In this document: one piece after another, positions 7,724 through 40,765 of the stretch
Position numbering within the stretch: the first letter of the stretch is position 1
Layout of the letters: each line of letters opens with the position of its first letter
Source of the DNA: Nemertoderma westbladi
Lineage: Eukaryota > Animalia > Xenacoelomorpha
Assembly: GCA_032718475.1 (NCBI GenBank)
Contig: JAUCBJ010005093.1
Location: 1 to 64,000 of the forward strand
Direction of reading: 5' to 3'
Length of the DNA stretch: 64,000 nucleotides
Made by a program: the position numbers and the translations under genes
The notes under the pieces: generated by a model
What the model was told of the DNA's origin: nothing
Databases searched by the model: none
The model's input: only the letters and a program-made list of their open reading frames with translations

Positions 7724-7884
7724 TGGAGTTTGTCATGAGTTTAGTCGTCCAAGCTTTGGACTGAGGGGGGTGGGATTGAGGGCGAGACACCCTTCCCACA
7801 CATAAAAACAGATAAAAATAGAAAATAAAAATAAAATAATAGTACATAGTAGGTACGCAGTTAGTAGGCAAAAGTTAGTCAGTA

Positions 7885-15610: not shown

Positions 15611-15643
15611 TATTTTGTAGCAATTTTCAATAATGTTGCAACA

Positions 15644-16027: not shown

Positions 16028-16248
16028 TAATGGTTAAAACGGGAGTAACATTTAGAAAATTATATTTAGTATCGAGTAAACCGTTAGCTACTGATTTAAA
16101 ACCTCAAGATATACCTAGAGTAAATACTACAAAAAGAAAACCCTTCAAAACATCAACTTCAAAGAAGATAAAAAAATTTCAGCTGTTTTTACGGTGATGC
16201 CCTTTATAAGAGATTTGAATATACATATTACTTGCGGTTGTCGAAAAG

Positions 16249-17338
16249 ATGCCACGCAAGATGAGACTGATTTTAAGCCGAAGCTTACACAAAAAACTGT
16301 TAAGAATTTATTTAGATCCTTCATCACCTGCGGGTTTTGCAAGTATCGCAAAATTAGCAAAAGCCGCAAACATCAAACCAGCTCAAGCCCAGAAATGGTT
16401 GAGCGGGCAAAAGACATACTCCCTTCACGCACCATGTAGACATCATTATCCACCATCTAAAATATTTACGGGAGGGTTAAAAGATATATATATGATAGAT
16501 CTGGTGGATATGCAGCAATATAAATCGCAAAATAATAATTATAACTATATATTAACATGTATTGATGCCTTTAGCCGGCTTGCTTTTGCCTATGGTATGA
16601 AAACAAAAACAGGTATTGAAATTATTAGTATATTGCAAAAAATATTCCAGAAGGGTAAACCAAACAGAATCGCGACTGATCAAGGGTCTGAGTTTCTAAA
16701 TAAATCTGTAAGAAAATATTTAGATACTATTGGTGTACAGTATTACGTAATGTACTCTGTGAATAAGGTGGCTATTATCGAGAGATTCAATAGAACATTA
16801 AAAACAAAGATGTTCAAAATTTTCACGCAACGGGTAAATAATGTTTGGATAAAAATTTTACCGAAGCTTATTTTTGCTTATAATAGGTCATTTCATAGGA
16901 CTATACAAATGACGCCCATTGAAGTTAATAAATTTAATGAAACTGAATTAATGAATAGATTATATGGGAAATATAGACAGATTAATCACAAGAAAATAAA
17001 ATTTAAAGTTGGAGATACAGTACGATTATCTATCGCGCGTAATGCTTTTGCTAAAAGCCATTGAGAACAATGGACACGTGAATTATTTATTATTCATCAG
17101 GTCAGATTGGATAGAGTACCAGCAGTAATGTTCGATATTAAGGACAGTGCCGGTGCTATAATAAATGGTTCATTTTATTCATACGAACTCCAAAAGGTCC
17201 ACCCGAGTAGTAATATTTATCTTCCAATTGACAAAAATATTGGCAAACTTAAAGAACGTGTGCGCAATGGGAAAAAAAGAATATTTAGTCCGATTCATTG
17301 GATCCAAAAAACAGTCGTGGGTACAGCATATTCAATAA
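16249..17338 (+). pseudogene. Polinton retroviral-type integrase with chromodomain-like tail
   Basis: MIDLVD, TDQGSEF, IERFNRTLK; TGA at 17062, then QWTRELF...GSFYSYELQKV and a frameshifted GKKEYLVRFIG...SWV. Confidence 0.92.
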
Positions 17339-17855
17339 GTTTAGGTTTATACTGTATATTAGTTCATTGAGTGAATAATGGTCACATATGACCGTAATTA
17401 ATCAATATTAACTCAAATGATATTACTATACTGTACTGTAAGTCTAATATCTATAGTTCATTCGCTTTAAATAAAGCCAGTAAAATATTGATCACTCGCA
17501 TATACTGCAGAAGCGGTAATGAACGTGGTAACAGATGTCTATAATTTAACATTATACTGTATATACAAAGGAGATAAGTAGAGAGAGCTTAAATAATAAT
17601 AATGGCCATAGATACATATATCACTCTAGTTTCAGATAGCTCATTAAACACATACCCCAATAATAACCCTAGCGAGTTTACTGTTGATTTAGCCGAAGAA
17701 TTATAATTATATTGGTCCAAACGCTAAAATTGGGCTTGCCGAGATTCAATACCAAGCAACATACAGTAATATTACTTTGCAAACTCAAATCTCACTGTCA
17801 ATCGGGGTAGATGCAAAAGATGCCAAATTATACAGTTTATTTCCAGGTATGCATA

Positions 17856-19852
17856 CAGTCGGGGTCTCAAAGTGCATCTGTTCTTTGAGATTTTCTCAAA
17901 GTTTTTCTAAAAGTGTCTAAAAGTCATTACATTACTCCCAACGGCCGCTTTGAATTCTTGTAGACACTTTTAGTTGGGAATCTCAAAGTGATTTCCTGCT
18001 TTTAGGCACTTTGAATTCTTTGAGAAATGTCACTTTGAGTTAGGTTGCGGCACTTTGAATTCTTTGAGAAAATAAACTCCGAGGTATTCCTGATTGACAG
18101 CTCGTGGTAAGTTAACAGATGCAGAGGCATTCTCGGGGAACAATATCATGCGGGCAACAAAGTGATACTTGTGTGCTGGCCAGTTGTTCCCTAGAAGCTG
18201 TTCCCATTAATTTATCATATTGAGGTTCCTGAGGTCATTACGGGATGGGTTTTCGGTCGCAAGTACAAATTTAATTTACGGCGCCCTAAAGTCATTCCAA
18301 AAAAACATTCTTAAAAATCAAATAATACATGAAACATAATTAGTGAAACAAGATTAATGCTTGACAAGATTGATTATTTTAATAACATAATACAATATCA
18401 GATTAACAATTAATATAAGAAAAACTGCACTGCAGTTTCTCTGTATACATAGTTTCATTATAATGACCTAAAGAAGCCCTGTTTGGAGAAAGCTTGTAAT
18501 AACATTTGTTATTCATTTCATTAGTCACCTGAGGTCAAACCGTACTACCGTAACTGTTTAATTAATATGATAACTATGTTGACGAGAGCGCGAGAATTCC
18601 TTCTTAAAAACTAAGAAAGGCTTTCGACTTTCAAGTACGATAGAACGGCTACACACTTGTGTTGTTTTAGCTTAATAGAGATATTAAAATATCCCCTGCC
18701 CCTGGCGTTTATATTTGAGCATATTTTAAATGTTTGCCTCATATTCAATTGATGTGTACCGCGGGGTACCGCCTTCTGGAAAAGCGGCACCCAGTTTAAA
18801 CTATCAATCACAGCTAGCGAGTAGCGACCCATGGACGGCGACCTTCAAACAAACAGGTGCAGAGCCGGAAAGAACTGTCGTGTTGCTGTTTGCTTGGCTT
18901 GTGGTACCATTTGATTACATAATAGATTTTGGCAGACTGGGCGGTCGCTCTGACCTGCATTGCGCACCAACAATGCCTAAAACTTCTATGGGAACAGCCA
19001 ATTAGAGCGCTTGAATCATTTCTCTTTATTCCTGCCTCTATCTTTATTCTTTACTTTGTATAACACAATTTACAGTGCGGCAAAGAAGGGCTGGTTGACA
19101 ATTGAAATGCATTGGTAAAGGAATTCGGCGTTCACGTGGGCTAAACAAATTTAAACAGTACAGTTTTAGCACTATACATTAATATAGATAGGGCAACAGA
19201 CAAACTGTCTATGACACAAATACCAACACATTCCAATAGCCCGCAATTATGGCGTCTCTAAAGAGTCAAATTATAAATTAATAAAATCCTCTATGAAACA
19301 ATAAAAATACCTACCAAAAATACTGCTGTATTAAATATTAGTTACTGCAGTAACAAATATTTATTACTGCAGCAACAAATATTTATTACTGCAGTATCAA
19401 ATATTTATTACTGCAGTAACAAATATTTATTACTGCAGTAACAAATATTTATTACTGCAATAATCAATATTAATAATTGAATAAATAATTGAATAAAAAT
19501 TTATACTGCAGTATCAAATTATTTGTTACTGCAGAAAAAAGACAATTTTTTATTACTGCAGTAATAATTAATTCTTACTTTCAGTAACAAATATTTATTA
19601 CTGCAGTATTTTTTGGAGGCATCTTTATTGTTTCATAGAGGTTTTTATTACTTATATTTTACCCTTTAGTCAAAGTCAATATACACCATTCCATAGCCAG
19701 CTTCAGGCTGGACTGTATGAAATGACTGACAGTACTACTTTGAAATCTTTGAGGACACTTTGTCATTTTCTTGGACCACTTTTAGAACTTTGAGACACTT
19801 TTAGTTCTTTGAGAAAATCTCAAAGAACAGATGCACTTTGAGACCCCGACTG
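17856..19852. mobile_element. Non-autonomous Tc1/mariner-type DNA transposon
   Basis: TIRs CAGTCGGGGTCTCAAAGTGCATCTGTTCTTTGAGATTTTCTCAAAG and reverse complement; TA on both sides (17854-55, 19853-54); no transposase. Confidence 0.9.
19258..19669. mobile_element. Foldback-like MITE with internal 21-bp repeats, nested in the Tc1-type element
   Basis: Imperfect ~70-bp inverted ends (CTAAAGAG...CCTCTATGAAACAATAAA / TTTATTGTTTCATAGAGG...CTTTAG) around (TTACTGCAGTAACAAATATTTA)n-type units. Confidence 0.7.
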
Positions 19853-20295
19853 TAGCTCTATTCAAGTCATTATTGATGATATAAATAAACTGTTTAATTC
19901 TGAAGCGAAATATAAAGATTTTGAATTCATTTTTAATACAAATAATTCTAGAATTAAATTTAAATTTCCTAAAAAGTTGAAAAAAATAAAATTAAGTCTA
20001 CGCGGTGATATAATACAAATTATAGGCTTAACACAATTATTGGATCAGAATCATCCGGGTATTCCGAATTGGGATATATACAGTACCACTACAGTGGATG
20101 AATTAAGCAATATAGAACAGCCGATATTAATTTTAAATTATATTGGACCAAAAATTTCAGAAATTGGTATTTTAGATTTTCCAGATCCCACGAATATTAC
20201 TCGTAATAAAGATACAATCTTCATATATACAGATATTATTAAAAGCTCTTTTGTTGGTGACGCTTTAGCTCCGCTCTTAAGAACCTGTCCTTTAA

Positions 20296-21145
20296 CCCTA
20301 TTCCACCTGGGCTCTTTTGTCCGAGATTCCACCTGGGGTTGGGCATAATATGCCCAACAGTTTATTATACACTAAAAAGTAATGATAATTTTATCAAAAC
20401 TTTCCAAATTTTCGCAGGTTTATAGAAAAATATATAATGCATCTGTTCTGAGTTTTATATATTCATAATTTTAAATAATATATCCATATAAATGAATTAT
20501 CATGAAGATAACCCATTATAGTAAAAAGATGAGATAATACTATACATACTCCTCCCAACACCACTGTCTGCCTAACTCTGCCTGACATCCCAAGTGAAAA
20601 TTTTGCTTGCAGGGGTGCTGTTATTGAATAGATTTATTCACCTCTGTTTATGTCTGCTGTATTACATTAGGAATATACTGGTTTCAATGGTGGTTGTTGT
20701 TTTATCCTAGTAGACTTATTGCTTGCTTATCTGTCAGTTTAGTATTTTGTTATTAAAAAATAATGTGATTGATGTGTACTAATCCAGGCAGTAGACAATC
20801 TCATGTTTGAATTTAACTTTACAACCCAGCCAAGTGAATGTCCTGGACCGTAATTGGTTGTATTCTAGCTTGTTGACCAAGGGAACTATCCAACCAGGGA
20901 TTATCTTTTCTACCAGTTAGGCTAATAAAGATATTATAATAAAAAAATGTGACTATGATATGAAAAACACACCATAGCACAAAAAGTATCAATGATGAAA
21001 AAAATATTTTGTTACCATCAGAAAGCCAATTAAATTCTAGGAAAAGTCAATGAATTTCATAATAATACATAAAAATCATCATGATGAATTTCTAAAAATA
21101 AAAAGTGTTGGGCAGATTCTGCCCAACCCCCCAGGTGGAATAGGG
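20296..21145. mobile_element. piggyBac-type MITE
   Basis: TTAA-CCCTATTCCACCTGGG...CCCAGGTGGAATAGGG-TTAA; removal restores the penton frame. Confidence 0.92.
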
Positions 21146-21320
21146 TTAACACAATTAAATCGAAAATATATTAATCACGAATATGAGAGCATTTGCTATT
21201 ACTCATTGTTGAATAAAAAACTAAAAACAATCTTAATTACTTTGCGTGAAGATCAAGGAGAATTAATTAATTTCAACGGAGGTCGCACTGTTATAACACT
21301 TAAGTTAATACGCGGTGGTG

Positions 21321-22166
21321 ATGGATGAATTCTATGTTAGGCTACCAAGTAACTCTTGTCCAATTGATTTCCCCCGTAATACTAATAGTAATTATCAGAT
21401 CAATTTTCATGGTGCCTTACCTATAAATCCAAACGAAAACTGGGTGGTTGGTATAAAAAGTATATTTTACTTAACCAAGTTACCATCCATGTATAACAAT
21501 GTAGAGAATGTTATTTTATTAAAAAAAGGGAAAACAAATTTTGAGGATACACTTCCATCCGGTTTGTTCTACAGTATTAATGACATTATAGATTATTTTA
21601 ACACTGGGGCGTTGAAAGATAAATTACAAATAGTTGAAAATACTCAGCAAAATATATTGCAATTTATTTTAGGGAAAACTGTACGAGAGTTATTTATAGG
21701 TCAACAATTAGCCTATTATTTTGGAATTACTGAAAATAATCTCGGTGCGAATTTAAATCCAAATTTTAAAATTATTTTGAAGACGAAAAATAATATAAAG
21801 GGTTATTTAATAAAGATTATCGGAAATGAAGAAAAAGCTTACCAAATGGTATTTTTATGTCCTCAACCACCCAATTCTATTCCAGAACCTAAGTCAAACA
21901 TGTATGTGACTACTAATATAATTGAAAATGAATATATTAATGATTTTGGCTTAGCTTTACTTCGTCGCGTGGCAATACCTGATGACGTGAAATATGGTAG
22001 TGTAATAAATAACGAATTTGCTAAGGATACAATTCATTATATCCCTGTAAAAAAATCATATAAGATAACATACATTCATATTGAAATAACAGACAAAGAA
22101 GGAAAAGATTTAAATTTTAAATATGGTACAACTTCTATTATCTTACACTTTAAAAAAATAAATTAA
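21321..22166 (+). CDS. Minor capsid (penton) gene 2, intact
   Basis: FYVRLPSNS..FPRNTNSNY...WVVGI...PSGLFYS...MYVTTNII...LLRRV...IEITDKEGKDLNFKYGTTSIILHFK. Confidence 0.85.
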   Translation: MDEFYVRLPSNSCPIDFPRNTNSNYQINFHGALPINPNENWVVGIKSIFYLTKLPSMYNNVENVILLKKGKTNFEDTLPSGLFYSINDIIDYFNTGALKDKLQIVENTQQNILQFILGKTVRELFIGQQLAYYFGITENNLGANLNPNFKIILKTKNNIKGYLIKIIGNEEKAYQMVFLCPQPPNSIPEPKSNMYVTTNIIENEYINDFGLALLRRVAIPDDVKYGSVINNEFAKDTIHYIPVKKSYKITYIHIEITDKEGKDLNFKYGTTSIILHFKKIN

Positions 22167-22167
22167 A

Positions 22168-22567
22168 ATGGATTCCGATTTATTTCAAAGATACAGTAAA
22201 CCTCAATATGGTGGTGCAGACTCTAATCTTGCTGTTTTTAAAGGTGGTAGAAGTATGAGAGGCTCGACGCAAGTTCCTGTTTTTCGAGGTGGTTCATATA
22301 TTGACCCTTACGGTCAACAAATTGGTGCATTTGGTCCAAACTTAAAACAACGTCGATTTCAACGTTATCGCAGAGGTATGCAGACAAATCAACACGGGGA
22401 AGGTATACTTACAGATGCTTTATCTACATTGAAAAAATTTGTAAAGCCATTAGCAAAAAAAGTTTTACAAAAAGCTTTACCATTTATCACAAAATTTATG
22501 AGACAACACGTAATACCAAAAGGTAAGCGTGTCTTACATCAGCAGGCTAATATGGTTATTAATAAAG
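22168..22567 (+). pseudogene. Basic core-like Polinton protein (PZ/pVII-like), truncated by element B
   Basis: QYGG, VFKGG, VFRGG and QHGEG cleavage-like motifs followed by an amphipathic Lys-rich helix; last codons of the listed ORF are LTR sequence. Confidence 0.7.
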
Positions 22568-23613
22568 TGTTAAACAAACTACCCCGGCCTAACCAATAAA
22601 GACACAAAACTGCTCTATTTATTAGACAGGGCAATCAGGAGCGTATTATTGCTAATGTAAGGGCTGCTAAATACAAAACCGCTACTCATCGTTAGATGGC
22701 GCTAACCTGCCGTCCGCTAATATATTTAACTAATTTTCTACGGCTCCTGCTAATTTCTTGTTCCTTTCTCTACCGATTACTCGATAGAGAGCTAATTGTT
22801 CGAATATATGAGCCACGCGGGAATAACCAAAACAATAACCCAAATCGGCTCCCTAAGCTGACTTAAAACAAGTATGAGAGACTTTACACTCAGAGTATAT
22901 TCTTACGGCCTAATCTAGCTGCTAAAACGCGTTAACAACAACGTCCTTTCTAATCTAATCTAATCGCATCTAATCGCATCTAATCGCTTCCCTAACAGAA
23001 TGTGTGAATGTGAGAATATTTAAATAATCAAAAATTGTTACAGTGTTTATTTCGGGACTCAAACTTACCTGCGGCTGGCTTTAGACCAGCAATTTACTGA
23101 TGCGCGCTATATACTGTATACTACGATGTGAATTATTGTCCGCTAATTCAAAAAACCGCCCAGCGTGAATAGTGTACGGTACTCTAAATTATTACCTTAA
23201 CTACCCTCCGCTATGGTGCGTACAAATTCTTAATTTTACTAAATAATTACAGTCACAAATATGTAACGGCGTACTAATTACTAAGTATTCCAGAGTGCGT
23301 AATTCTAATTTATTACTCAACGGGTCGCACTAGCAACAGCCTAAAATACCGTATTATTTTCGACCTAATCAGTAATTAATTACAGTAAACTAAGATATAG
23401 AAATCAATCAAAGGGAAAAGAGCGCCTATCCAAGCATTCGTGATTTTTTAGGCACACTTTAGTAACATACCAATCAGCGTAACAATATATAGTTTATACT
23501 TACCAATTTTAGTTCTTAACGCACAATTCACAATCAACAGTCAGATAGCAATTCGCAACGTAAAGCACGCAGGTCTCTCCCGGCTACATCTAGGCTTCCT
23601 AACTAACCCAATT
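22568..23613 (-). repeat. 3' LTR of element B (matched part; true LTR extends further right)
   Basis: Starts TGTTAAACAAACTACCCC on +; direct repeat of 39262-40357 with roughly 25-30 substitutions counted by eye. Confidence 0.95.
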
Positions 23614-25266: not shown

Positions 25267-28200
25267 TTACCGACCCGCTCCTGGGTTCTTCGGGCTCGCT
25301 CCCCTCTTTCGCCCCCTTCCCAGATACACCAATCGTCCTCCAGTCGATTCTGTTGACGTCGTCCGCGAGGCGTCACTCCTCGGAACCGGCGACGATGATT
25401 CCCGGCTCGTGCTTCTCCCTCGGCCTTGTCCCAATTGTCGTGCTCCTGTGGTCACTTCCGCCAACTCTTCCTTTTGCAATTGCACGCGCGCCTTCTCCGA
25501 CGCACCCTGCGCCTTGCGCTGCAATCGCTGTGCCTCTATAATAGAATGGTAGTGATCGTCCTTGACTTGACGCTTGTCTTGGACCTCTCCTCCTGGTTCC
25601 TTCCGTGAGCCTTGAGCTCCAACGGTCGTCACTGTGGGCGCTGCGGTTCGCTGTTCTTCGATTCTCTGAGCGTCAACGACACCACTGGTACGTGAGTCAA
25701 TAGGAATTCGTTGCGGTATTGAATAGCCGCCATCCTCCAATCTCCTCGCGCGCGCACCACCTTTCTAGTTTCCGAAAATAGACCTTTCGTGATACGGTCG
25801 CAAATAGCAACAAAGTTCCAAGTGTACTTATTATCCATATTTAGTTGTCTGAAGTATTCCCGAACAACTATGACTCCAGTGTTCTGTGGAAGGTCTTGAG
25901 CGGTCAATATGAGCTCCTGATATTGTGGCAAAGACTGTAGATACGGCTCGTACGCAACATGTGATGGGTCTACCGCCCAAAATCCATATCCCGCCTTAAA
26001 TGGTAACCAACGCATCTGCGCTTGGATGTGGTCAGCCACACTCTCCCACTTATCTAGCATCTCCCGAAGTAGGTTAGCGCTATGGTTTTGGAAGGAATCG
26101 TCTTGCAGTTGGCATCTTGCGCTACGATGTCCCTTTACTCCACAATATCCACATTGAGAAATGAAAACGGTGCACGTATGAAATGAATGGTCGGTCTCGT
26201 TGCACCAATGGCAGACCTTATGCGCCGCCTCCACTACCGCGTCGCACGATTTTTGATTGTGCCTTGTGCTGCCGCACAACTTGCACCTACGCGCTTGTGG
26301 AAACCAGGCCCTCTCGTATATGAGGTCTCCAATCGGTTTCGCACTTCCTTCTTTCCCAATGTCTAATACGATGTCGTCCTCTCCGGTTAAAGGTTGTCGA
26401 TCCGGAACGAAGTAAACATCCTCGCCCTTGTCCTCTATCTCCAATATTTCCTCCCGCGTTCGTTTCGGATATGTCTTCTCCACCGGAAGATCTACTCCAA
26501 ACACCTCTACTAACGTCTCCGGCCAACCCTCTCTAACAGGTCTATCAGCCTCCGAGTGGAAGGGAGTACCAAACCCGCGGGTTTGATTCCCGAACCACTT
26601 CTCCAAAGCTTCTGGCGTCGGATACTCCATCGACGGTCCGTCTCCCAAATCTCCGATATTCTGTCGATATATCCCTTCGAATATCGCTAATCCTCTCCTC
26701 ACCATCGACGTATTCTCTAGCGATTGGTTGAAGAACGGGGTTAAGAAACGCTTCATCACGTCGGATTGGATTCCCACTTTCGAGCGAACGTATTGATTTC
26801 CTCCGAACACCAATGGATGACGCTTCAAAACTCGCGCAACGATATCCGCTAATAAACAAGTTACCATGTTCGACTCAAGCACCAAATAATATTGTAGTGA
26901 CGCACGGGGTGGCGCGCATATGTTCCAATACACTAACGCTTGCCGCTTGAAGTGGGATTTGAACTCCGCTCCCGGTGGCGTGTTATATTCACCATACGCC
27001 TCCTCGTATTTCTTCTGCGTTTTCAACTTGAAGTCCCAATTATACAATAAATGTGCTATGAAGCCCACACCAGTCTTGGCAGAGTTGGGATACTCCCTAT
27101 AAATTCCAATGTCTTGTACCCATAGCAACAATTGTTTGGTGTCGACAAACGGTCTTGACAATCTATCTTCCAAATCAGTTATGGCGTTAAAGTCACTCTC
27201 CAAATCGCTCTGGACTCCCGATCCCACCTTGACGTAATCTTGGTTGAGAATAGCCTCTCTAACCTTCTTGGGTAACATCCTGGTGTCGATACGCTCTGCT
27301 CCGTGCATACCTCCTCGCCTGCATAGTGCATACCTCCAAAATCTGTTCCCTAGGATCCTTCCCTTTCCGATATTGTGTCGTGATTATGGGCTCCGGTCTC
27401 TCTCTATCCGCTCTTACGCGCATAAACACATGAGTCACACCATCGGCCGTGCGAATTTGAATGCACTTACTAGTCAAGCATTCCTGATGAGACCCTCCTT
27501 CATTGTCGTAGAACATCACTCTCCAATCCTGCAGTGATTCCTCCGTTTTCCTCCACTGACGCTGAATCTCGTCGGATGGGGTCCACATGCGCTCGATAGC
27601 CTTGTGGTCGTCATATCGGGTGTAAGATCCCTTTCTCCTCAGCCACGCCGGATCTACCTCCTCGTCATCTGGGAATGTAGCCACCGCGACCCATACCTTG
27701 ATGTACTTATCTAACCATCCGAATAACTTACTCTCCTTTCCCGGAGCTCCAATCTTATCCAATGTGTCGTAGTCTGTGATCTGCATTGGGACATCACGCA
27801 AGAACTTCGCGCATAAAACTTCCCGTAGACAGTCGACGTTCCAATGATCCGACATCCTCACCATCGGCAAGAATCTAATCGCTTCTCGCGACTCCGGGTG
27901 ATCTACCAATATCGCAGGTTAGTTGCCGTCGGAATAATACACCGGTCGGGGTTGAGATACGGCCTGTGGAACAAATCCGGTCACTCTCCTCGTCTCCTCT
28001 TGATGTCTATCCGCGGTCTTATTATATTCCGCTACCCGCGCTTCGAATAATTGATTCGCCTTCGCCGCTCGCTCCTCCTGCCGCAACGCATCTATGTCGT
28101 CCTGATGCTCAGGCGTGAGAGTTTTCGCTTGATGGGGCGAAGTAAACGTAGACCAGGGACTCAAGAGCTCCAAACCCGCGGGTTTGGTACCTGAGTCCCG

Positions 28201-28986
28201 TGCCGCTTCGCACCGCGCCTCTAGGTAGGCTCGGTATAGCGAAATGGCCGCTGCCGTCTCTATCAAACTAGGTGTCGAACAGGGTTTAATCTCCGTATAC
28301 GGATCTAATGTCGTAACAGTCGGCGTAATGGGTCTTGGAGGTCGCTTGCCGCTGAAGTCGATACTGATCATCGGGTTGCTCATTGGGTAACCTCCCTCGT
28401 TGTATCTAAGGAATTGGTGAGCTTGACATCGCGTTAATATCGGTTCAGGATGTTGCTCGTCCAGTCGGTCGGGAATCGCCACGTCTTGTTTATTCATGCA
28501 TTCACCACATTTGTAGAACAACTTGTATACACTGAAGACCTTTGACGTCTCTTGATCCTCGCCTCGAGTCCTCCGATACAGATGCATTCCATCGAATTGA
28601 TCTCGGACTGCAGGTAAAGGCTCTTCATGTCGTAAATACATGTTCATATGGTACAGCCGCGCAATCTCCTCGTCCGGGTCTGCGCTAATGTTGCATACGT
28701 CTAACGCGAAATCGTAGGGATACCGAGTGCGATACTCCTTCCGCAAAACTTCCATGCGGTCCCCCAACGCTCTCATTCTTTCCCTCCTTAATTCTTTATC
28801 GTAAGCGGGTTTATACTTCCCATTTAGCTCCATTACCGACCTTCCATGATAGTAAACATTCGAATCCTTACATCCTGGTCGGGCAAATGGCAGCTCCGCC
28901 TCCTCTCTGGCAGTAAATCCTCTCCGCGGTTGGGCTCTAATTCCCTTCTCCATTACAATCCGCATATATACATATATATATTCCAA
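25267..28986 (-). pseudogene. Accessory ORF of element B: unknown N-terminal domain, DEDDy-type exonuclease, three CCHC knuckles, basic tail
   Basis: 28986-27919 continues in frame past TAA into 27909-27259 (MFYDNEG), frameshifts to 27308-25629 (LPKKVREAILNQDYVKVGSGVQSDL; YYLVLES; CKLC, CHWC, CGYC knuckles), probable tail in 25740-25267. Confidence 0.78.
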
Positions 28987-29720
28987 TAAGTTCCGTTACG
29001 TAACTAATTACACTGTGGGTGAATCAGTTAGATGTCGCTGAAGGACAGACCTCCTGAGCCCCCCCCCCCCCCCCCCCCCCCCCCACCGCCTTCCAGCAGT
29101 TCAGGTTCGACTCTCTAGATCCCGTCTCATTCCTAACTATCCTCTAACCTATTCCCATGCATAGCGCAAAAACTTTTGAGATAAACTGGCCGTGACCCTG
29201 ACCAACTCACTTTTTGATGCCCAAACTACTCCCATTACTTGTACTAAACTACAGTAGTTAGAAAGGACAATAGTCTCAATGCTCGACTATACCAAACCCA
29301 CAGGTTTGATAATCGAACATCACACTTCACTGCAAACTACTGAGTGCGGTCCGTGTATGCCCTGGTGCTACTAACCTTTAGCACCTTAGTTGTACTGTAG
29401 GCACCAATCTGTGGAAGTTGCTAAACTCAATTCACACTCCTACGTAATATAGCCGTCACCATGGTTTCTAAATGCTATTTTCCAGGCTTCATGACTTTTC
29501 AAATTACTGTTTATCTATAGACGAATTCTAAATCGCATCTATACACAGCATCTGGAATTGTCTTGGGTTCACTTCTAATTTTTAAATTTTTTAATTTTCC
29601 AAAAATTTTGAAATAAAATTTTGTTTTGATACCCACCAGGCAAATCACCACAAACCCGCTCCTATGCATTTCCTTGTATTTGCATACGAGGAATGCATAC
29701 GAAGTGAGTTGCGTCCAACA

Positions 29721-32700
29721 CTAATTTTTATTTGAGGCAGGAGACAAATTATAATCTCCTGTCTCGATGCGTGTCTCTTCTAATAACACAATATCTTGGA
29801 CCGGTCGGTCCAAGGTGTGTAAACCATTAGTTTTACACTTCTTTGGGTGCGGACACTTGCACCTAATTTTCACAGTGACTGTGCGCACTATGTTTTGCAC
29901 GTCTGGGTGTATGTGCAAGATAACTCCCGTCTCCCAGTACTTTCTCTTGACAATTGGTTCGGTTATCAATACGTAATCTCCTCTTTGGAGGCTCCGAACC
30001 GTTTTGTACCACTTTGTTCTGGTAGATATGGTGGGAAGATAGTATTCCCGCCAATATTCCCAGAATGTGTACGCCACAAATTGTGTCACTTTCCAGCTCT
30101 TACGACTATATAGGTCGGCACTAATGGGTTCTGATGCCGGCACAAGAAATGCTGGACTCTGCATTAGCAAATGATTCGGCGTTAATGCAACACCGTCTGG
30201 CAACATAGCTATCGGCCTCGAGTTCAGGGTATGCTCGATTTCGATGAAAGCTGTGACCAGTTCGTCGTCGGTAAGTTGTTTGTTTACAGGCAATGTCTTA
30301 GCAATGGCCTGCTTTATGGAACGAACCAAACGCTCCCAACTTCCTCCTCTCCAAGGACTTTCTGGAGTATTGAATCTCCACTCTATTCTTTGCGGCAAAA
30401 GTGCTGCAGAAATTTCTTTATTCTGCGCTGCTCTGTGAGCCGCGTTCAACTCGCTATTCCCTCCGACAAAGTTTGTACCCTTATCAGAGTAGAACACCTT
30501 TACTAGTCCTCTCCTGGCCATAAATCTCTTTAAGGCCAGGAGCAGAGATTTGGTCGACATGTCTGCCACACGCTCGATATGTATGGCTCTACTAGCCATG
30601 CATGTCAGTAGCAGGCCCCATCGCTTGTGGGTCAGCCGTCCACTCTTTGCCTCAATCGGACCAAAACAATCCACCCCTGTATTCGTAAAGGGTGGGTCAT
30701 ATGCCTGCACTCTCGCTTCCGGGAGTTCAGCCATCTCCTGTTCCAATACTCTGGCGTTCACCCTCTTGCAAACCAGACAGGCGTCGTACATAGTGCCTAC
30801 TGCCCTGCTTGGCTGCAATAGAATGAATCGCTGTCTCGCTGCCGACAAACAGTGTAACTTTCCCGCGTGATGCAACCTCTTGTGTATATCCCATAGAATC
30901 GCTCTTTGCAATTCTATTGGGTGACTAGGGATTATCACTGGGAACCTGAACTGTGAGTTTATGTCGACAGTCTGGATTCTCGATCTATGACAAATCAAAC
31001 CCTTATGGATTAATGGACTCCATTTTCTAAGGGGTTTATAGAGAACTGGTCGTTGAGCCGATAATAGATGGAATTCCTTTGGGAAGGCACACATTTGATA
31101 ATGTTTCAAATGCTTTAATTCCGCTTGATCAATGTCATCCTCTGTCAGAGGTTGTTTCAATTTCTGAATTCGCTCACTATTAGTGCTCATTTGTTCTCCC
31201 AAATGTTTCGAATGTTTTAAACAAAGGTACGAAATGTATCGGCTTAACCACGCAGTTCTTTTACAAATTGTCAGCCAAGAGGCAGACGAATTTAGTAATT
31301 TGTCATAAATACTACATGGCTCTAACGCCAGCGACGGTTGTCCGCTAACTAATGGAAGTTTCGAATCCAAACCCACAGGTTTGGAAACCAAAGGCTCCAT
31401 TGTGTCGGTCATTTTCTGTCCGTCACTTACCAACTGTGACTCTGGTTTAGTCTGTAAGGGTGGTTTTACGTCATAACTTACCCTTCCTGACCTAGTAGTC
31501 ACGTAAGTCTGTAGGTCTGACAGGTCTCCAGGCCGCTCCAATGGCTCTTCAGGCCGCTCCAATGACTCTTCAGGCCGCTCCAATGACTTGAGTTTGGCTT
31601 TAGACTTTGACTTAGAGACTTTCTCCACTTTGACTTCTGCATCTTCTGGCATCGGATTGGTCACTATCTTTAGTCGCTCTGGCCAATGTTCCTGTGTCCT
31701 CGTTAGAAAATCAGGTCCATGCAACCAAAACTCCTGGGACTCTTCCTGACAGAATTCCGCCGGCATTGCACCTCTCGAAGTTATGTCGGCCGGGTTTAAC
31801 ACTCCCGGACAATGTCTCCATTGTTCCTTCGTCGAAAAGTCGACGATCTGAGCGCGTCTGTTGGCCACAAATGTCTTTAGTGCAATATTGTCGGCCGCAA
31901 TGTATACTAACACTAAGGATGCGTCCGTCCAATAAAATAAGGTCAATGTCGTGTCTAACTCCTCTGTTATCTGCTTACTTACCTCGACTGAAACTACTGC
32001 CGCCTGTAACTCTGCACGAGGGACAGTCATGTATTTGACCGGCATTGTCTTTGATCTAGAAGTCACAAAGGCCGTCTCAAATTTATCCTGACTTACCTCT
32101 CGGCGAAGGTAGGCTACCATACCAAAGCCGGTGTCACTTGCGTCACTGAATAGGTGGAGTTCGAGATCAGCTGGGAATACCAGCTGATTCGGAAAGTAGG
32201 AACGGGGTACATCTATGTTTTTCAATAGATGCAACTCGGCTTCCCACTCTCTCCACTGCTTTGCATGTATAGGAGATATTGGTTCGTCCCACTCTAGGTC
32301 GGACAACCAAATTTTCCTCATGCACGCTCGTGCCTGTAATATTACCGGACTGATAAAGTTCATCGGGTCAAATAGTCTACTTAATGTCGATAAGCAAATT
32401 CTCTTTGTCAAAACTTTGTCTGGACTACTGGGCTCAAATCTAACTCTTACCTGGAACTTGTCCGTGTTCGGGTTCCAAGCGAGTCCCAGTACTCGCGCCA
32501 TGGGGATGGGTTCTACCCCCAATTCAATGTCTCCGCTCCCGCGATCTTTCACCGGGAACGACTCTAATAGGGCCTCCGAGTTCGTAGTGAACTTGGTCAG
32601 AGGAAATCCCCCTGTAGCCAAGCACTCCTGCAGGCCGTGAGCCACTTCTATGGCTTGTTCCGCTGTGTCCTTGGACACCAATCCGTCGTCCATGTAGAAG

Positions 32701-35700
32701 TTTCTCAAGATGGACTCGATAACCTCTACTGGATACTTACCAATCTGGGCTGTTGCCGTTTTCTTTAGAACAAACAGCGTGCCATTTGGACTATCGCGGG
32801 CACCAAATATCCTAACGTACATTTGGTATGTAACCACTGGGCCGGATAAGTCTTCATTCTCAAACCAGAGAAATCGAAGGCTATCCTGGTCTGCCTTACA
32901 GGCTCTTACCTGGTGGAACATCGCCTCGATGTCACAAGTAAATGCGAATCGCCGCTGTCTAAAACGCAACAGTATTCCTATCAAATAATTGTTCAGGTTG
33001 GGTCCGTCCATCAACTCTGAATTCAGGGACATACCTCTGTAGACTGCTGCGCAGTCGTTGACTACTCGGACTTTGTCAGGTTTGTCAGGGTGAGTCACAT
33101 AGTGGTGTGGGAGGTAATAAGTCTGGTCTGTCACTAAGTCAGGGTCCTCTACCTTCCCAGCAAATCCCTTGGCGAAATAGTTGTTGATCTGGGCGCAATA
33201 CTTCTCCCTAATGTCCGGATTCTTCAACAACCGAGCCCTTACTCCGTTCAATCTTTTCAAGGCTAAGCTGTAGTTGTTCTCCAACTTAGGAGGTTGTCGA
33301 CGCCACAACATTCCAACTTCAAAATGTCCAGTCGGTAGCAGACGTATGGTATCTTCCATCATCTCCAGCGACCGTTTCTCATCAGTAGACATGGCTAGGT
33401 CATATCCACCGGGTTCCATTGCGTCCCTATCCAGCCATTCGACGGTTCTGGCTCCTGTCTCGAGGTCCTGGCGTATCAATTCCTTCTGTAGCTCCTCCTC
33501 ACTGTATTGGAAAATGTCTAGGTCTCGATATTTAGCCACTTGACCCTCCACTATGTCGGTATAAGTCAAAACGTTACTCAGATAGGTAGCGTGGGCCGCT
33601 GAACCAGACCCACGGGTCTGATAACAGTAGTCCTCGGGTTCACTATCTGTCCGGTCATTGTGAAGTGGTTCCGACAACCTAACATTATCGGGAATCAACT
33701 CCTCGTCCGACTCGCTAACGTCACTATAATGGTCAATACAGGTTCTCCTAAACTCGTCTATGTCTGGTGGTTCTACTAACGGTGGTTGAGTTATAGGCTG
33801 TAATCCGTCGTATCTATCCATTGGCTTGTCGCCACCTGTAAACTCATAAGACATGGGTACTCGTGTATACCAACCTAATATAGTCCTATGGGCATGTGGT
33901 CCATTGACATGCGGCTCAGCTGGTCTCGTTTCCCATATTTGGTGTGCGATCAGCTGTTCTGCACCAATCAACATAGAAACATTCCTATAACCTACCTGGT
34001 GTCTCGGTACTCTGAGTTTGTCAAAATACTCCTGTGCTATGGGACTCATCGGTGGCACCTTACCTAACTGCCTGCCGAACCCCTTCATAGCTAGACACTT
34101 GAATCCATCTAATGGCAAAGCTTTCCGTTCTTGTCGAGTGTGTTGGTCTCTCGGAAGTAGGGAATCTAGTTCTACAGAAATTCTGTGTCCCTTGAGGTCA
34201 CGTACCCCGTGCATAGACTTTAACTCTATTTGTATTTCCTCTGCATCCTGGAAGCTAGAAACGGCTCTCGCCACTTCCTCGTCTATATATGATAATGTGG
34301 ACGCAGTGTCCAACATCACATATATTCTTTTTGATCCCTTATCTCCAGTAAGTTTCACCGGAATCACGCTAAATATTTCCGACGTGGCCGATGATAAATA
34401 CGTCCGCGCGCTGGTCGATGAACTATCCGCAGTGAAACCTTGGCAGGTCACCTCTCTTGCGCTCGATTCGCCATCCTCGTCCGACGAACCTGGTTGGTAA
34501 CCATCGTCTTGAATGCCGGTATACGTATTTCTTCTTATCGATACGGGTTCTTCGCTCTCCTTCCTTTGAGGATTTCGCTGTAAGTAACGGTCCGTTGGGG
34601 TGTGGAAATCCGCATGTAGCAACTTGTGATGTAGTCTGCCGCATTCCATGCATCCGTCCTTGCTGTTCGGGCACTGCCGCCGTACATGACCTGGCGCAAG
34701 ACATGCCCAACAGGTGTCCAATGTCCGCACTTGAAATCTTCTCTGTTCCGAATTTAATTCTTTGAACCGTCTGCAACTATCCAACTTATGATCGTCAGAT
34801 CTTACCTCCTTTAGTAAGCAGAATTGGCAACCTACAAATCCATCCGGCAACTCCTGTTGCTTTAACCTAGGTCTATCTAACCGCTCACCTGACCATACTC
34901 GCGAGTCTGATCTAAAGGCTGGGGTACTCGAATTATATCTGTCTACTGAGTTAAATGTCACAGTGGTCCTGTCATCGTCAAAACTTACCATAGACTTACC
35001 GGTAACAGGTTTAGACTCCCACATATTCTCCTCTGAGAAGTTTGATTTCATCTCTGCTACTGCGTCTGTGGCTATCATGTCATGGATATGTTGAAGTGTC
35101 AACACCTTACTTTGACCCTCCAACTTATTCTCTAATTTGCGCCATTTCTGACTGTAACGCATGTTTAAACGTCTTATTACGCTCTTCAAAACTTCGGCGT
35201 GATCACCAAGATAAGGTAGATTCACCATCATCAAGATGTCTAATGCGTTCGAAATAGCATTCGCTAAGTTCAACAGCTCTAACGGAGTTGTAATCCTTCC
35301 GCCCTTACCCAAGTCTTCTACTATCGACTGTGCCATCTTGGTTTTATTCCCATAGATGTCGCTAAGCGTCTTCATTGCTAACTCAAACGCCCTTTCATTG
35401 CCGACGAAGTTGTCAGCAATGACTCTAGGTTCTCGATGGAGCATTTGAAGCAAATAGTTGAACTTCTCGTTGGGAGTAAAGGTGCTGTTGGTCAGCTGTT
35501 CGTCGACATAGGTTTTGAACGTCCTCCAATGCTTATGGTTGCCCATAAACTTCTGGGGTTGTTGCGTCGGCAGTCCTTGCCTAGCAGCAAACTTACCTAT
35601 GTCTCTAAGTGTTGCGTCGTTCCGGGTTAACAAATGGTTTAGTTCTGCAGGGTTATTAAGTCTGGTCCTTTCCCGGGGATTAAAACTTACCTGCTCCGCG

Positions 35701-36941
35701 TCCATCCTTCTTTCCTTATAGTTTCGGGACTTCTGATGTCTCATGTCATCCTCTTCATCGCTTGATTCAGTGTCAGTCCTTAGCGCTCGCGATGGTTTGC
35801 GCGCTGAGGCCCTGACCCAGGCATCTTGTATAAACTTCTCGGCCGAATTTTCGAAATCGGGATTATGGATAGTCGGGACAGGCATCCTTACCTGAGGTCT
35901 ATGTGGTATAGTTGCCTCCAATATGCGTACTCGTTGACTAGGTTGGACTTTATCTAACTCAGGCCTGCTAGGATTTGAATTACTTCTTACCTGGGCTGCT
36001 TCCTTTAACCGTAGGTTGCTAAGCATGTCCGTTATAGGTTGGATGTGCGGCGATATAGCTTGCGCTAAACTGGCACTTAACTCATCCCTCGTAATAAATT
36101 CCTGGCTAGGGTTCTGTTGTATAGTCGGCTCTATCTGAATAATCCGCTGTCTCTCATATGATCCCTCTTCCGGTTTATCCCGTAAGTTCTCCGTTGAACT
36201 GGGTCGGCGCTCCGTCCGCGTATTCCAAACCCGCGGGTTCGGTTCACCAAATACTCGTCCCGTTGGAGTTTCTCTAAACTCTTCATTCTCGCGTTCGGTA
36301 TGTAGTGGTGCGGTGTTCTGATGCCGTGGATTCTGTGCGATAGGTGAAGCACTAATACCAACTGGTGTGCGATTTGTAGAGAACGGTTTAGCGATCCGTG
36401 TACTCGTAATAGCTGGACCGGGTATAGGAATTCTGGTCATCGTCGACTCGCGTATAGTCGGAGTTCTTGCTTCCTGTTCGGCCTTCTGCAGTGCGAACAG
36501 TTCTCGCAACTCAGTACCTACACTCGCCCCACATTCTTCGATCATTCGCATCCCCTTCTCGGCGATTTCATTTGCCTTCCTGGTCCGTTCTTCGCTCTCT
36601 AAGTTTAATCTCGCACTTTCCAACTGCGCCAGTTTACGTTCTTCTTCTTCCTTCGCTCGTCTTGCTGCGCTCTCTTCTTCCACTCGCGCCTTCTCTTCAT
36701 ACAACGCTTGTCGCTCTTTTTTGATCTCGAGTTTGCGTTCTTTGCGTTCGCGTTCCTTGCGTTCGCGTTCAAGTTCGAGTTCGCATTCCTTCTGTTCACG
36801 TTCAAGTTGGAGTTCGCGTTCCTTGCGTTCGCATTCAAGTTGGAGTTCGCGTTCCTTGCGTTCGTGTTCAAGTTGGAGTTCACGTTCCTTGCGTTCGCGT
36901 TCCGCTTGCTCACGCTTACTTATTTCTTCCAACTCTCGCAA
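29721..36941 (-). CDS. gag-pol: BEL/Pao Gag-Pol polyprotein (open, 2406 aa)
   Basis: DUF1759-like gag, three knuckles, MLDTAS protease, FYMDDG, FSDAS, NPADITSRG, GVDCFGP, SDKGTNF, GSWERLV. Confidence 0.95.
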   Translation of the reverse strand: MRELEEISKREQAERERKERELQLEHERKERELQLECERKERELQLEREQKECELELERERKERERKERKLEIKKERQALYEEKARVEEESAARRAKEEEERKLAQLESARLNLESEERTRKANEIAEKGMRMIEECGASVGTELRELFALQKAEQEARTPTIRESTMTRIPIPGPAITSTRIAKPFSTNRTPVGISASPIAQNPRHQNTAPLHTERENEEFRETPTGRVFGEPNPRVWNTRTERRPSSTENLRDKPEEGSYERQRIIQIEPTIQQNPSQEFITRDELSASLAQAISPHIQPITDMLSNLRLKEAAQVRSNSNPSRPELDKVQPSQRVRILEATIPHRPQVRMPVPTIHNPDFENSAEKFIQDAWVRASARKPSRALRTDTESSDEEDDMRHQKSRNYKERRMDAEQVSFNPRERTRLNNPAELNHLLTRNDATLRDIGKFAARQGLPTQQPQKFMGNHKHWRTFKTYVDEQLTNSTFTPNEKFNYLLQMLHREPRVIADNFVGNERAFELAMKTLSDIYGNKTKMAQSIVEDLGKGGRITTPLELLNLANAISNALDILMMVNLPYLGDHAEVLKSVIRRLNMRYSQKWRKLENKLEGQSKVLTLQHIHDMIATDAVAEMKSNFSEENMWESKPVTGKSMVSFDDDRTTVTFNSVDRYNSSTPAFRSDSRVWSGERLDRPRLKQQELPDGFVGCQFCLLKEVRSDDHKLDSCRRFKELNSEQRRFQVRTLDTCWACLAPGHVRRQCPNSKDGCMECGRLHHKLLHADFHTPTDRYLQRNPQRKESEEPVSIRRNTYTGIQDDGYQPGSSDEDGESSAREVTCQGFTADSSSTSARTYLSSATSEIFSVIPVKLTGDKGSKRIYVMLDTASTLSYIDEEVARAVSSFQDAEEIQIELKSMHGVRDLKGHRISVELDSLLPRDQHTRQERKALPLDGFKCLAMKGFGRQLGKVPPMSPIAQEYFDKLRVPRHQVGYRNVSMLIGAEQLIAHQIWETRPAEPHVNGPHAHRTILGWYTRVPMSYEFTGGDKPMDRYDGLQPITQPPLVEPPDIDEFRRTCIDHYSDVSESDEELIPDNVRLSEPLHNDRTDSEPEDYCYQTRGSGSAAHATYLSNVLTYTDIVEGQVAKYRDLDIFQYSEEELQKELIRQDLETGARTVEWLDRDAMEPGGYDLAMSTDEKRSLEMMEDTIRLLPTGHFEVGMLWRRQPPKLENNYSLALKRLNGVRARLLKNPDIREKYCAQINNYFAKGFAGKVEDPDLVTDQTYYLPHHYVTHPDKPDKVRVVNDCAAVYRGMSLNSELMDGPNLNNYLIGILLRFRQRRFAFTCDIEAMFHQVRACKADQDSLRFLWFENEDLSGPVVTYQMYVRIFGARDSPNGTLFVLKKTATAQIGKYPVEVIESILRNFYMDDGLVSKDTAEQAIEVAHGLQECLATGGFPLTKFTTNSEALLESFPVKDRGSGDIELGVEPIPMARVLGLAWNPNTDKFQVRVRFEPSSPDKVLTKRICLSTLSRLFDPMNFISPVILQARACMRKIWLSDLEWDEPISPIHAKQWREWEAELHLLKNIDVPRSYFPNQLVFPADLELHLFSDASDTGFGMVAYLRREVSQDKFETAFVTSRSKTMPVKYMTVPRAELQAAVVSVEVSKQITEELDTTLTLFYWTDASLVLVYIAADNIALKTFVANRRAQIVDFSTKEQWRHCPGVLNPADITSRGAMPAEFCQEESQEFWLHGPDFLTRTQEHWPERLKIVTNPMPEDAEVKVEKVSKSKSKAKLKSLERPEESLERPEEPLERPGDLSDLQTYVTTRSGRVSYDVKPPLQTKPESQLVSDGQKMTDTMEPLVSKPVGLDSKLPLVSGQPSLALEPCSIYDKLLNSSASWLTICKRTAWLSRYISYLCLKHSKHLGEQMSTNSERIQKLKQPLTEDDIDQAELKHLKHYQMCAFPKEFHLLSAQRPVLYKPLRKWSPLIHKGLICHRSRIQTVDINSQFRFPVIIPSHPIELQRAILWDIHKRLHHAGKLHCLSAARQRFILLQPSRAVGTMYDACLVCKRVNARVLEQEMAELPEARVQAYDPPFTNTGVDCFGPIEAKSGRLTHKRWGLLLTCMASRAIHIERVADMSTKSLLLALKRFMARRGLVKVFYSDKGTNFVGGNSELNAAHRAAQNKEISAALLPQRIEWRFNTPESPWRGGSWERLVRSIKQAIAKTLPVNKQLTDDELVTAFIEIEHTLNSRPIAMLPDGVALTPNHLLMQSPAFLVPASEPISADLYSRKSWKVTQFVAYTFWEYWREYYLPTISTRTKWYKTVRSLQRGDYVLITEPIVKRKYWETGVILHIHPDVQNIVRTVTVKIRCKCPHPKKCKTNGLHTLDRPVQDIVLLEETRIETGDYNLSPASNKN

Positions 36942-36962
36942 CTTCGCGTCTAACTTACATGT

Positions 36963-38070
36963 TCACTCCCTTTCCCGTTCGGCTTCCTTTCGTGCTTCCG
37001 ATGCACGCAAAACTTCCGCCTGCTGTTCATCTAGTCGGCGTCTTCTCTCCTCTGCCGAGTTGTGAGAAACAAGGGATCTAGCACATATAACCTTGCCTCG
37101 CGCTTGACTAACCTGAGAATCGCCACTGTCTCTAGATGCATCGTCGGGTGGAGTCAACGTCCTCTGTTGGATGTTCTCCGTCGTCGGTAGCACCTGGCCC
37201 GGTACCACCACTCCACTCTGCATCAGCCAGCCGGTAACTTCCCGCTGATACCTGCGCTCCTCCTTATCCTGTATTTCTTCCCGCTCCACTAAATCTCTCG
37301 ACTCTGCGTCACTCACCTGAGTCGCCTGCGCTTGTGATGCCCATAGCAGCCAGTTCTCCGTCCTAACTCGTCGAAATCGCTCCGATAACGCGCGGTGCTC
37401 CAACAAGGCTGCTAAAACCCTGCCGTAAATCCTCGTTGCCACGTCACTCGACTGAGACTCTACTGCCTTCTTTGCGAGGACTGCAAGCTCCTCCGTTTGT
37501 TTGAGTAACGCTGAGTTGTATCCCTTTCTAATCTCTACTAACCCTTCCCTTCCGATGTTTGCTGAGTCGGCTAACATCTTCCTTACCTTTTCCGCCATCC
37601 GTGTCATATGTCCAGCATGCGCGCGAAGTTTCTTCTTTATCGCGATGTCAAGTTCTCTTTCGCTTACCTGACTCACACTTGGTGGACTTGGATTATGGTG
37701 GATTATTTCGGGAACTACGGGTACTCCTTATAGCCGCTGGGACCACGGCACTTACCATACCCACAGGTCTGGAAACCGGGCTCCGGGCTCTCGCTTCTGC
37801 TACACTACCCTCCCTATCACTCATCTCTGGTCGGGTTGCTGTACAATCCTTCCTTACAGTAGCGGTAGGGGATCCTAATACTATTACCTGAGGTTGTTGT
37901 TCTTCCTCACTAGTTACTGTCTCGTCCTCCTGTTCACTTACATCAGCGTCACTCGCTGTGTCGTCATAGTCGGCATTGTCGTCAACAGTAATATTAACGC
38001 TATCGTCAGTCGGCGGTCCTGCCGCCATCTCATAGCTGTCCTCTAGTGCCTCCTTCTCTGAGACACTCAT
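36963..38070 (-). pseudogene. gag: N-terminal part of element B gag
   Basis: 37676-36963 is in frame with the 2406-aa ORF across one TGA; 38070-37693 joins through a frameshift. Confidence 0.75.
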
Positions 38071-38879
38071 AGTCTAAATAATATTTGCCTTCCGGCAAAA
38101 TCTCGCAAATATTCGAGATGTATATATATATAATTTAATCGAAAATACGATTAAATTATTGTCAAATAATCAATTTGTCCAAAATATCAAAATAAATTCG
38201 CAATGCAATATTGTGAATTTAATAGGATCTAATTTTAGCAAATACCAGTACAATATTTAAACAAAATATTATTCTATAGCTATTATATAGTATTTAAATA
38301 CCGGTATGACACAAATAATTTTTTGAATCTAATACAAAATATTCAAAATAAACTTGCCACCCAAATATTTCTAATTTTACATATATAGCTCTAATTAACG
38401 CAATTTTAATTTCAAATATTATATGTATCCACTAGCGCGAGGCTACATCTTCGGGTTACGACTCTCTCTCTCTCTCTCTCTCTCTAACTCGAGCGATTCA
38501 AAAACCCATGGTCGGCTAAACCTAACTATCCTAACTAATAAATTGAGTTCAGCTTCGCAGTTAAACAACCGATAATTTTTTACTGCTTCCACAAACACAA
38601 TGGTGCCAACAGAACAACTAACCTTGTTTGCTGTGAGATTCCACGTCCGCGTCCAAAGTTTCAGTCTTTTCGCTGATTGCAAACCGAACCCGCAGACCCA
38701 CACGAACCCCAAACTCAGAAGCTCCGTCTTGCCATGCATCTCCAGATGGTATAAAATAACTAAGCGGTTATCTAACATACCGGTACAAAACTCTAGATTT
38801 TATTACAAAGTTAATTTTGACCGAAACTGAATTCTCACAAACCTAGCTAAAATTTTTCAAAAACTAACTTACAGCTTGC

Positions 38880-40721: not shown

Positions 40722-40765
40722 TTAATCATTTAACTTTTGTTTATCTAAATATATTATCAGATAAA

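Follow-up and report, generated by a model that had tools for sequence, protein, structure and literature searches.

A putative DEDDy-type exonuclease gene with three CCHC knuckles in two distant BEL/Pao retrotransposon families of Nemertoderma westbladi

Introduction

The published profile of the Belpaoviridae (BEL/Pao) lists gag, pol and env only, in elements of 4.2-10 kb (PMC8742986). In a repeat-rich, 64,000-nucleotide (nt) stretch of Nemertoderma westbladi DNA (assembly GCA_032718475.1, contig JAUCBJ010005093.1, positions 1 to 64,000; hereafter, the window), there are two long BEL/Pao long terminal repeat (LTR) retrotransposons, element A on the plus strand and element B on the minus strand. 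Because their Pol proteins share only 31-34% identity, A and B represent distant families. Both elements possess an additional sense open reading frame (ORF) after pol. What does this ORF encode, and is it maintained as a gene? An earlier note, made from the sequence alone, proposed that a module of an exonuclease domain and zinc knuckles recurs in A and B and has been under long-term selection. Here, we describe a follow-up analysis. The ORF is a real and conserved exonuclease-knuckle gene, which is apparently unannotated in BEL/Pao.

Results

Layout of the extra ORFs

In both elements, the extra ORF comprises, in order, a putative exonuclease domain, a linker, three CCHC knuckles and a short C-terminal motif (Table 1). 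All motifs named in the earlier note were located in the sense frames, at the same position and in the same orientation and order in A and B. The motifs claimed for 25267-28986 of B are therefore present, but this region is not a single open frame: it is divided into four pieces, first by a stop (27919-27921), then by a shift of frame near 27320 and probably by another near 25680. B family contigs over 25556-25721 align with one gap. In A, there is a single frameshift near 9530. Piece 1 of B is in frame with piece 2, with one stop between them; it may belong to the exonuclease-knuckle protein as its N-terminus or form an ORF of its own. Neither a Pfam match nor a convincing PDB match was obtained for this piece. 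It bears a C-x2-C...C-x2-H pattern within its 355 amino acids (aa), and a subset of B family contigs has an in-frame internal deletion at 28478-28807.

Because no strongly hydrophobic segment was found in the six pieces (maximum 1.47 on the Kyte-Doolittle scale with a simple 19-residue window), the extra protein is not env-like. We also considered the C-terminal motif as a copied Gag tail. This idea was rejected, as comparison of the motif with the Gag regions of A, of B and of a third BEL/Pao element in the window (described below) gave no match.

Homology between the A and B ORFs

We compared the A and B proteins by reading through the breaks with X, and took the chance level from 1000 shuffles. 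The exonuclease regions, which are about 24% identical, gave a score of 69, where the best shuffle reached 55 (0/1000), and only one of 1000 shuffles was as good for the whole part before the knuckles. The region after the knuckles was marginal (40/1000). The N-terminal parts before the exonuclease are unrelated (876/1000), as are the linkers. Piecewise BLASTP of A against B outside the knuckles gave weak matches (E 0.007-0.016). This protein-level comparison indicates that both ORFs share ancestry. The earlier note would have been wrong if the proteins did not align outside the knuckles, and the exonuclease regions do align. It was also right that there is no DNA-level similarity between the two genes (best blastn E 0.12) and that the LTRs are unrelated (candidate 3′ LTR of A against the B LTR, best E 0.85).

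A third member, P0121

With the B exonuclease piece (233 aa, without knuckles) as the query, we searched 1.84 billion representative proteins using HMMER. One protein was obtained at E <= 0.001: P0121 (648 aa, E 4.6e-6), an intact, unnamed protein that forms a cluster of one and is encoded on a 9449-base ENA contig. Its motifs are, in order, SIDVE, KVGSNIKAD, VLDTQ and WTKPLCHDQLYYIYCE, followed by a low-complexity linker, three knuckles (in the first, the Cys-His spacing is one residue shorter) and FERWAP...WGFF...LPFTY. The exonuclease of P0121 scored 98 against A and 151 against B, each better than all 1000 shuffles, and its part after the knuckles matched that of A (0/1000). Judged by its sequence, P0121 has the same architecture as A and B and bridges the two. 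Because the query was free of knuckles, the knuckles and C-terminal motif of P0121 are an independent confirmation of one protein family. Metagenome scans with the B exonuclease piece and with P0121 gave no locus, and word-based protein searches for relatives gave 0/3902 and 0/1575 candidates.

Exonuclease identity and the D-E-D-E site

PDB sequence searches with the A or B pieces, separate or read through with X, detected no exonuclease. We built a DEDDy profile from 41 bacterial domains (WRN-like, RNase D and Pol I). With this profile, A scored 8.0 bits (0/500 shuffles) and ranked first among 618 six-frame segments (E 0.056), B scored 2.4 bits (1/500 shuffles), and P0121 scored 21.4 bits against a shuffle maximum of 4.5. 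When the three-member alignment was compared with the profile by hhalign, the probability was 91% (E 1e-6), and it was 2.5% when only the WRN-like subset was used. In the ESM Atlas, three unnamed clusters came top, followed at 0.94 by a PF01612 cluster, in which the family is present in 34% of the members; that set is shared by 25 of 30 matches. The knuckle and C-terminal region gave generic zf-CCHC leads only, all below 0.9.

An AlphaFold model of P0121 was made from an alignment of A and B only, with no DEDD sequence and no templates. Foldseek with this model gave nothing at E <= 0.001 (best E 1.4e-3). All 37 matches listed were DEDD-exonuclease-domain proteins, by title or known identity, led by EXD2, Exd1, Trypanosoma brucei RNase D (TbRND) and Egalitarian (one Egalitarian entry is bound to I-factor RNA). 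With VIA-align, EXD2 was first (Z 8.1, root-mean-square deviation 4.2, 115 residues) and was the sole chain with Z >= 8 among 48,161. In a viral library, 3′-5′ exonucleases were again in the lead. Together with the hhalign and ESM Atlas results, these matches support the RNase H-like DnaQ fold for the N-terminal half only. A single-sequence AlphaFold model of B (predicted local distance difference test score [pLDDT] 34) was too poor for a fold search. It should be mentioned that a weak match to rotavirus VP8 (E 0.01) was rejected as chance, because both the fold tests and the profile tests indicate a different identity.

The ExoI D-x-E (DNE, DDE and DVE in B, A and P0121, respectively) and the ExoII Asp (QSD, RED and KAD) align with the profile. 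The placing of ExoIII depends on the alignment of all three proteins and on the residues around it in P0121 (W-x-x-P-L...Q-x-x-Y). An Asp adjoins the ExoIII Glu in A, but not in B or P0121. The DEDDy assignment comes from the combination of the tests, no single one of which is strong, and it is secure for ExoI-ExoII.

Copies and selection in the two families

We used contigs from four public runs (X1-X4; X1 and X2 are one sample). In these runs, 6759, 4026, 3899 and 8 contigs together cover the whole A ORF, and 4278, 3336, 2124 and 5 together cover the whole B ORF, many at 90-99% identity in both cases. A and B are clearly both multi-copy families, and contig depth is no measure of copy number. 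An indel at the B break near 27320 was found in contigs of all three runs of organism A, and one X4 contig differs from the window across the A break. Because the family contigs differ there, these two breaks are not family-wide. None of the differences listed falls on the B stop at 27920.

For the codon analysis, the best-supported 40 of 356 differences in A and 40 of 312 in B were taken. We used 39 in A (one upstream site was dropped) and 32 in B (one site outside the ORF and seven tail sites of uncertain frame were dropped). The listed differences mix private decay and subfamily divergence. In A, 28 of the 39 are synonymous (p 3e-6; about one third is expected), against 3/39 and 9/39 in the wrong frames; piece 2 accounts for 24 of 32. 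The differences listed for the codons of the ExoIII Glu and the neighboring Asp in family A are at third positions. In B, 17 of the 32 are synonymous (p 0.03), with 7/9 in the linker-knuckle part and 8/14 in the N-terminal ORF of piece 1 (p 0.06). These results support maintenance of the gene by selection, strong in family A and partial in B.

Structures of the elements and their surroundings

Peptidase_A17 was detected by Pfam in both elements (E 1.6e-40 in A and 5.5e-39 in B). Both also have DUF5641, and B has DUF1759 in addition; with these Pao-specific domains goes a Pol in the order protease, reverse transcriptase, RNase H and integrase (PR-RT-RH-IN), which assigns them to BEL/Pao. In B, gag-pol has an open stretch of 2413 aa (36962-29721) with broken gag pieces upstream. 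The LTRs of B (1.04 and 1.09 kb) differ by 3.0% substitutions; their lengths lie within the 0.2-1.2 kb and their ends are the TG...CA of the family. The whole element extends over 17.8 kb (40354-22568). The partner (5′) LTR of A falls beyond the window edge. A roughly 15-copy array of a 32-35-nt unit (7870-8390) lies between the pol and extra ORF of A, and a run of about 28 G (29058-29085) is present on the sense strand of B at the matching place. A third BEL/Pao element is represented by a gag-protease ORF of 1507 aa (57375-61898), with most of pol gone.

No canonical TGG primer site directly follows the 5′ LTR of B, and no target-site duplication adjoins the ends of B; given these absences, this copy may have been recombined or deleted. 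B is enclosed by a Polinton/Maverick-like element (14927-22567 and 40347-41360). The two flanks of B lie in different ORFs, which, together with the absence of a target duplication, suggests deletion or recombination. The Polinton-like region contains what are presumably a packaging-ATPase-like ORF (14927-15610), an integrase (16219-17064) and, immediately to the right of B, a remnant resembling a cysteine protease. A short ORF at 40700-41100 begins with IIFVDFQYY. These residues resemble the beginning of ExoI in what may be a remnant of a further DEDD-type nuclease; the ORF gave no match to the retrotransposon exonuclease profile. A 2-kb element (17854-19854) is inserted in the same region; its 48-nt terminal inverted repeats are perfect, and between them lies a 22-nt tandem array. 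Elsewhere, a CR1/L2-type long interspersed nuclear element (48142-52040) has ORF1 and an open endonuclease-reverse transcriptase ORF of 978 aa.

Table 1. Positions of the parts of elements A and B in the window
Feature	Position	Strand	Remarks
A gag-pol	136-7723	+	Broken, several frames; Peptidase_A17, reverse transcriptase, integrase, DUF5641
A extra ORF, piece 1	8867-9529	+	ATG; ExoI ILDDEG 9185-9202; ExoII 9347-9418
A extra ORF, piece 2	9541-11379	+	ExoIII, long linker, three knuckles, C-terminal motif, basic tail
A exonuclease motifs		+	LPKAVQ...IRED 9347-9418; LLDMQK 9452; GKFREEYG 9577; RYILQED 9694-9714
A three CCHC knuckles	10681-10851	+	
A C-terminal motif	10885-11022	+	FEEWAD 10885; KWGFF 10945
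A candidate 3′ LTR	12090-12640	+	Inferred from TG/CA ends; preceded by G-rich purine tract
B 3′ LTR	22568-23610	-	TG...CA ends; preceded by purine-rich tract on minus strand
B extra region, piece 4	25267-25690	-	Probable charged low-complexity tail, other frame
B extra region, piece 3	25700-27314	-	ExoII 27275-27204; ExoIII Y-x3-E 26891-26871; linker, knuckles, C-terminal motif
B extra region, piece 2	27325-27918	-	N-terminal part of exonuclease; ExoI FYDNEG 27513-27496; possible start ATG 27864
B extra region, piece 1	27922-28986	-	355-aa ORF from first ATG; no known family
B exonuclease motifs		-	LPKKVRE...VQSD 27275-27204; FVDTKQ 27149-27132; KKYEEAYG 27014-26991; YYLVLES 26891-26871
B three knuckles	26285-26112	-	C-x2-C-x4-H-x4-C
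B C-terminal motif	26048-25914	-	W-x-x-x-A/G...W/Y-G-F-F/W; WESVAD 26048; GYGFW 25991
B gag-pol	29721-38073	-	DUF1759, knuckles, reverse transcriptase (YMDD), Peptidase_A17, integrase, DUF5641
B 5′ LTR	39262-40354	-	

Discussion

We consider it very likely that the A and B genes are homologous and under selection. Several observations weigh against the reading of these genes as conserved exonucleases. Both window copies are broken. With Pfam, neither A nor B gave an exonuclease match, also when read through with X, and P0121 reached only 11.9 bits (E 0.2) against PF01612, below the gathering score of 23.6 bits. The DEDDy profile scores of A and B alone (8.0 and 2.4 bits) are low, and hhalign gave 0.5% for A and B against WRN-like proteins. 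In the P0121 model, the mean pLDDT is 34; residues 31-122 are moderately confident and ExoIII is not modelled. ExoIII reads Y-x3-E in A, B and P0121, whereas the acidic residue is Asp in 41/41 bacterial references. P0121 may or may not lie in a BEL/Pao element, and its part after the knuckles did not match that of B significantly (338/1000 shuffles). No exonuclease ORF lies beside the third BEL/Pao fragment within the window. Finally, the sample of codon differences is small and non-random, and the exonuclease part of B shows no synonymous excess (2/9). Of the claims in the earlier note, the DEDD-family identity agrees with the DEDDy profile, ESM Atlas, Foldseek and VIA-align, and the Glu at the Y-x3-D position was found in A and B, with P0121 as a further case. 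The claim of long-term selection holds well for A and in part for B, outside the B exonuclease.

The explanation that we prefer, tentatively and at somewhat less than an even chance, is that a DEDDy-type exonuclease with three CCHC knuckles was captured once, has been kept by selection and trims RNA 3′ ends against silencing or decay. A single capture with vertical descent is rather probable. The extra ORF would have a messenger of its own, perhaps a spliced one; the acceptor-like motifs just 5′ of both ATGs (near 8845 in A and 29015-29040 in B) are suggestive only. The knuckles would grip single-stranded RNA and the exonuclease domain would trim its 3′ end at a working two-metal site, in which Glu replaces Asp. 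We rate the chance that the D-E-D-E domain is catalytically active as even. By analogy with TbRND, the substrate would be RNA rather than DNA: we infer an RNA trimmer because, among architectures whose mechanism is known, that of TbRND is the closest. Nibbler and Exd1 have roles in small-RNA pathways. Because the nearest folds include these two proteins, the target would most plausibly be germline RNA, either the small RNAs of silencing or tailed transcripts of the element. Such trimming might help the element to escape host RNA silencing or decay and hence to multiply. An anti-silencing target is, taken by itself, doubtful. We regard as quite unlikely the further idea of a deep BEL/Pao lineage with an undescribed family of D-E-D-E counter-defence nucleases with three RNA-binding knuckles, which trims or destroys PIWI-interacting RNAs and so allows high copy number in both families.

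The protein may instead be a pseudo-nuclease RNA adaptor, which, like Egalitarian, Exd1 or Maelstrom, does not cut RNA but binds its ends or stem-loops and helps to package, protect or transport the element RNA. This is possible, although we think it unlikely. The ExoIII Asp is replaced in all three members, Exd1 and Egalitarian are among the top fold matches, the knuckles look like nucleocapsid knuckles, and EXD1 and Maelstrom are described, in the part of PMC5408684 that treats them, as inactive DEDD derivatives. However, the four acid positions stay acidic and the Tyr stays Tyr in proteins that are about 24% identical; Glu is able to ligate metal, and A has an Asp beside it. Dead enzymes usually lose their active-site acids, which counts against an adaptor. 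That the protein acts on DNA in the particle, trimming non-templated or mismatched 3′ ends of complementary DNA, either strong-stop or full-length, before strand transfer or integration, is improbable. It is encoded by a separate ORF, unfused to Pol, with no evident packaging signal, and the CCHC knuckles beside the RNase D-type domain of TbRND serve RNA binding, as far as PMC7797062 describes them. Nevertheless, the DEDDy group includes DNA-acting WRN and polymerase proofreading domains (PMC5408684, in its outline of the group), and domains of both types are among the fold matches. Moreover, B (17.8 kb) is far beyond the size range of its family, and end trimming may matter in such an element. 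Dada DNA transposons carry a DEDDy domain, and the relevant section of PMC3706591 proposes that it is used on cleaved 3′ ends.

These alternatives concern function; another concerns origin. A and B may have acquired a portable cassette separately from a pool shared between retroelements, which seems rather unlikely to us. The position and orientation are identical in A and B, and there is no DNA similarity as a mark of recent exchange. Furthermore, the divergence of the exonuclease (24% identity) is slightly greater than that of Pol, as expected for co-descent. For such swapping speak the unrelated N-terminal parts and linkers, the third BEL/Pao fragment without the ORF and, according to the bdelloid section of PMC5408684, the gain of DEDDy ORFs at least twice in bdelloids, where they are common to LTR and Penelope-like elements.

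The gene is of interest because few counter-defence proteins are known for animal retrotransposons. With it, BEL/Pao becomes a second retrotransposon family with a DEDDy ORF, in a distinct architecture and with codon-level signs of selection. P0121 is an intact natural homologue, and its isolated domain is open to assay. If the domain is active, a DEDDy enzyme tolerates an ExoIII Glu, which is absent from the 41 references checked.

No exonuclease ORF in BEL/Pao was found in the literature searched: the word "exonuclease" has 0 occurrences in the main text of the BEL/Pao survey PMC3118150, and passages of PMC11662393 hold nothing relevant. Such an ORF may be recorded in Repbase, Dfam or GyDB, in older Cer papers or in supplements. 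A nematode Cer element has perhaps been noted with an exonuclease-like domain, so that a description may already be in print. The elements resemble the described Belpaoviridae in their LTRs, PR-RT-RH-IN order, Peptidase_A17, DUF1759 and DUF5641 (PMC8742986), but B is longer and the third region holds the exonuclease-knuckle gene instead of env.

Among cellular proteins, the best structural matches are EXD2, WRN-exo, Nibbler (Mut-7), Exd1 and Egalitarian (PF01612). P0121 has in common with this group the ExoII motif K-V-G-x-x-x-x-x-D and, around ExoIII, W-x-x-P-L...Q-x-x-Y. In contrast, the identity is 11-20%, ExoIII has a Glu here and is preceded by an insertion, and the scores are below the Pfam cut-off. 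When PDB sequences were searched with the family profile, TbRND (PDB 7C42) came first, owing to its knuckles; it was also a fold match. Like the proteins here, it has several CCHC fingers after a DEDD exonuclease, and in the account given by PMC7797062, these fingers bind RNA and strongly raise cleavage. Unlike them, it is cellular and mitochondrial, with a canonical DEDD site, four fingers and a short linker, as that account describes it. The TbRND-like architecture is probably convergent.

The closest published case is the DEDDy ORF3 of the bdelloid LTR retrotransposons Juno and Vesta and of Athena/Terminon elements, described in a portion of PMC5408684 and mentioned in passages of PMC6338049, PMC6431247 and PMC5718144. 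We set these ORFs apart from those of A and B on the basis of the published description. As far as that description goes, both are sense ORFs that follow pol where env would stand; both are RNase D-like, lack a transmembrane part and have a changed acid motif, and in both the nuclease activity is putative. The hosts differ: Juno, Vesta, TelKA and Mag in bdelloids (PMC5408684) and BEL/Pao here. Here, the domain is fused to a set of three CCHC knuckles and, beyond them, a conserved C-terminal motif, whereas only a Cys-His-Cys motif is described in Vesta2/5; the acid motif is DEED in the bdelloid proteins and D-E-D-E here. A synonymous excess was found here, whereas the intragenomic variation reported for bdelloid ORF3s (env- and GDSL-types were tested) is near neutral. 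Thus, DEDDy ORF3s of retroelements were already known from bdelloids, and the BEL/Pao host, the triple knuckle and the D-E-D-E site appear to be new here.

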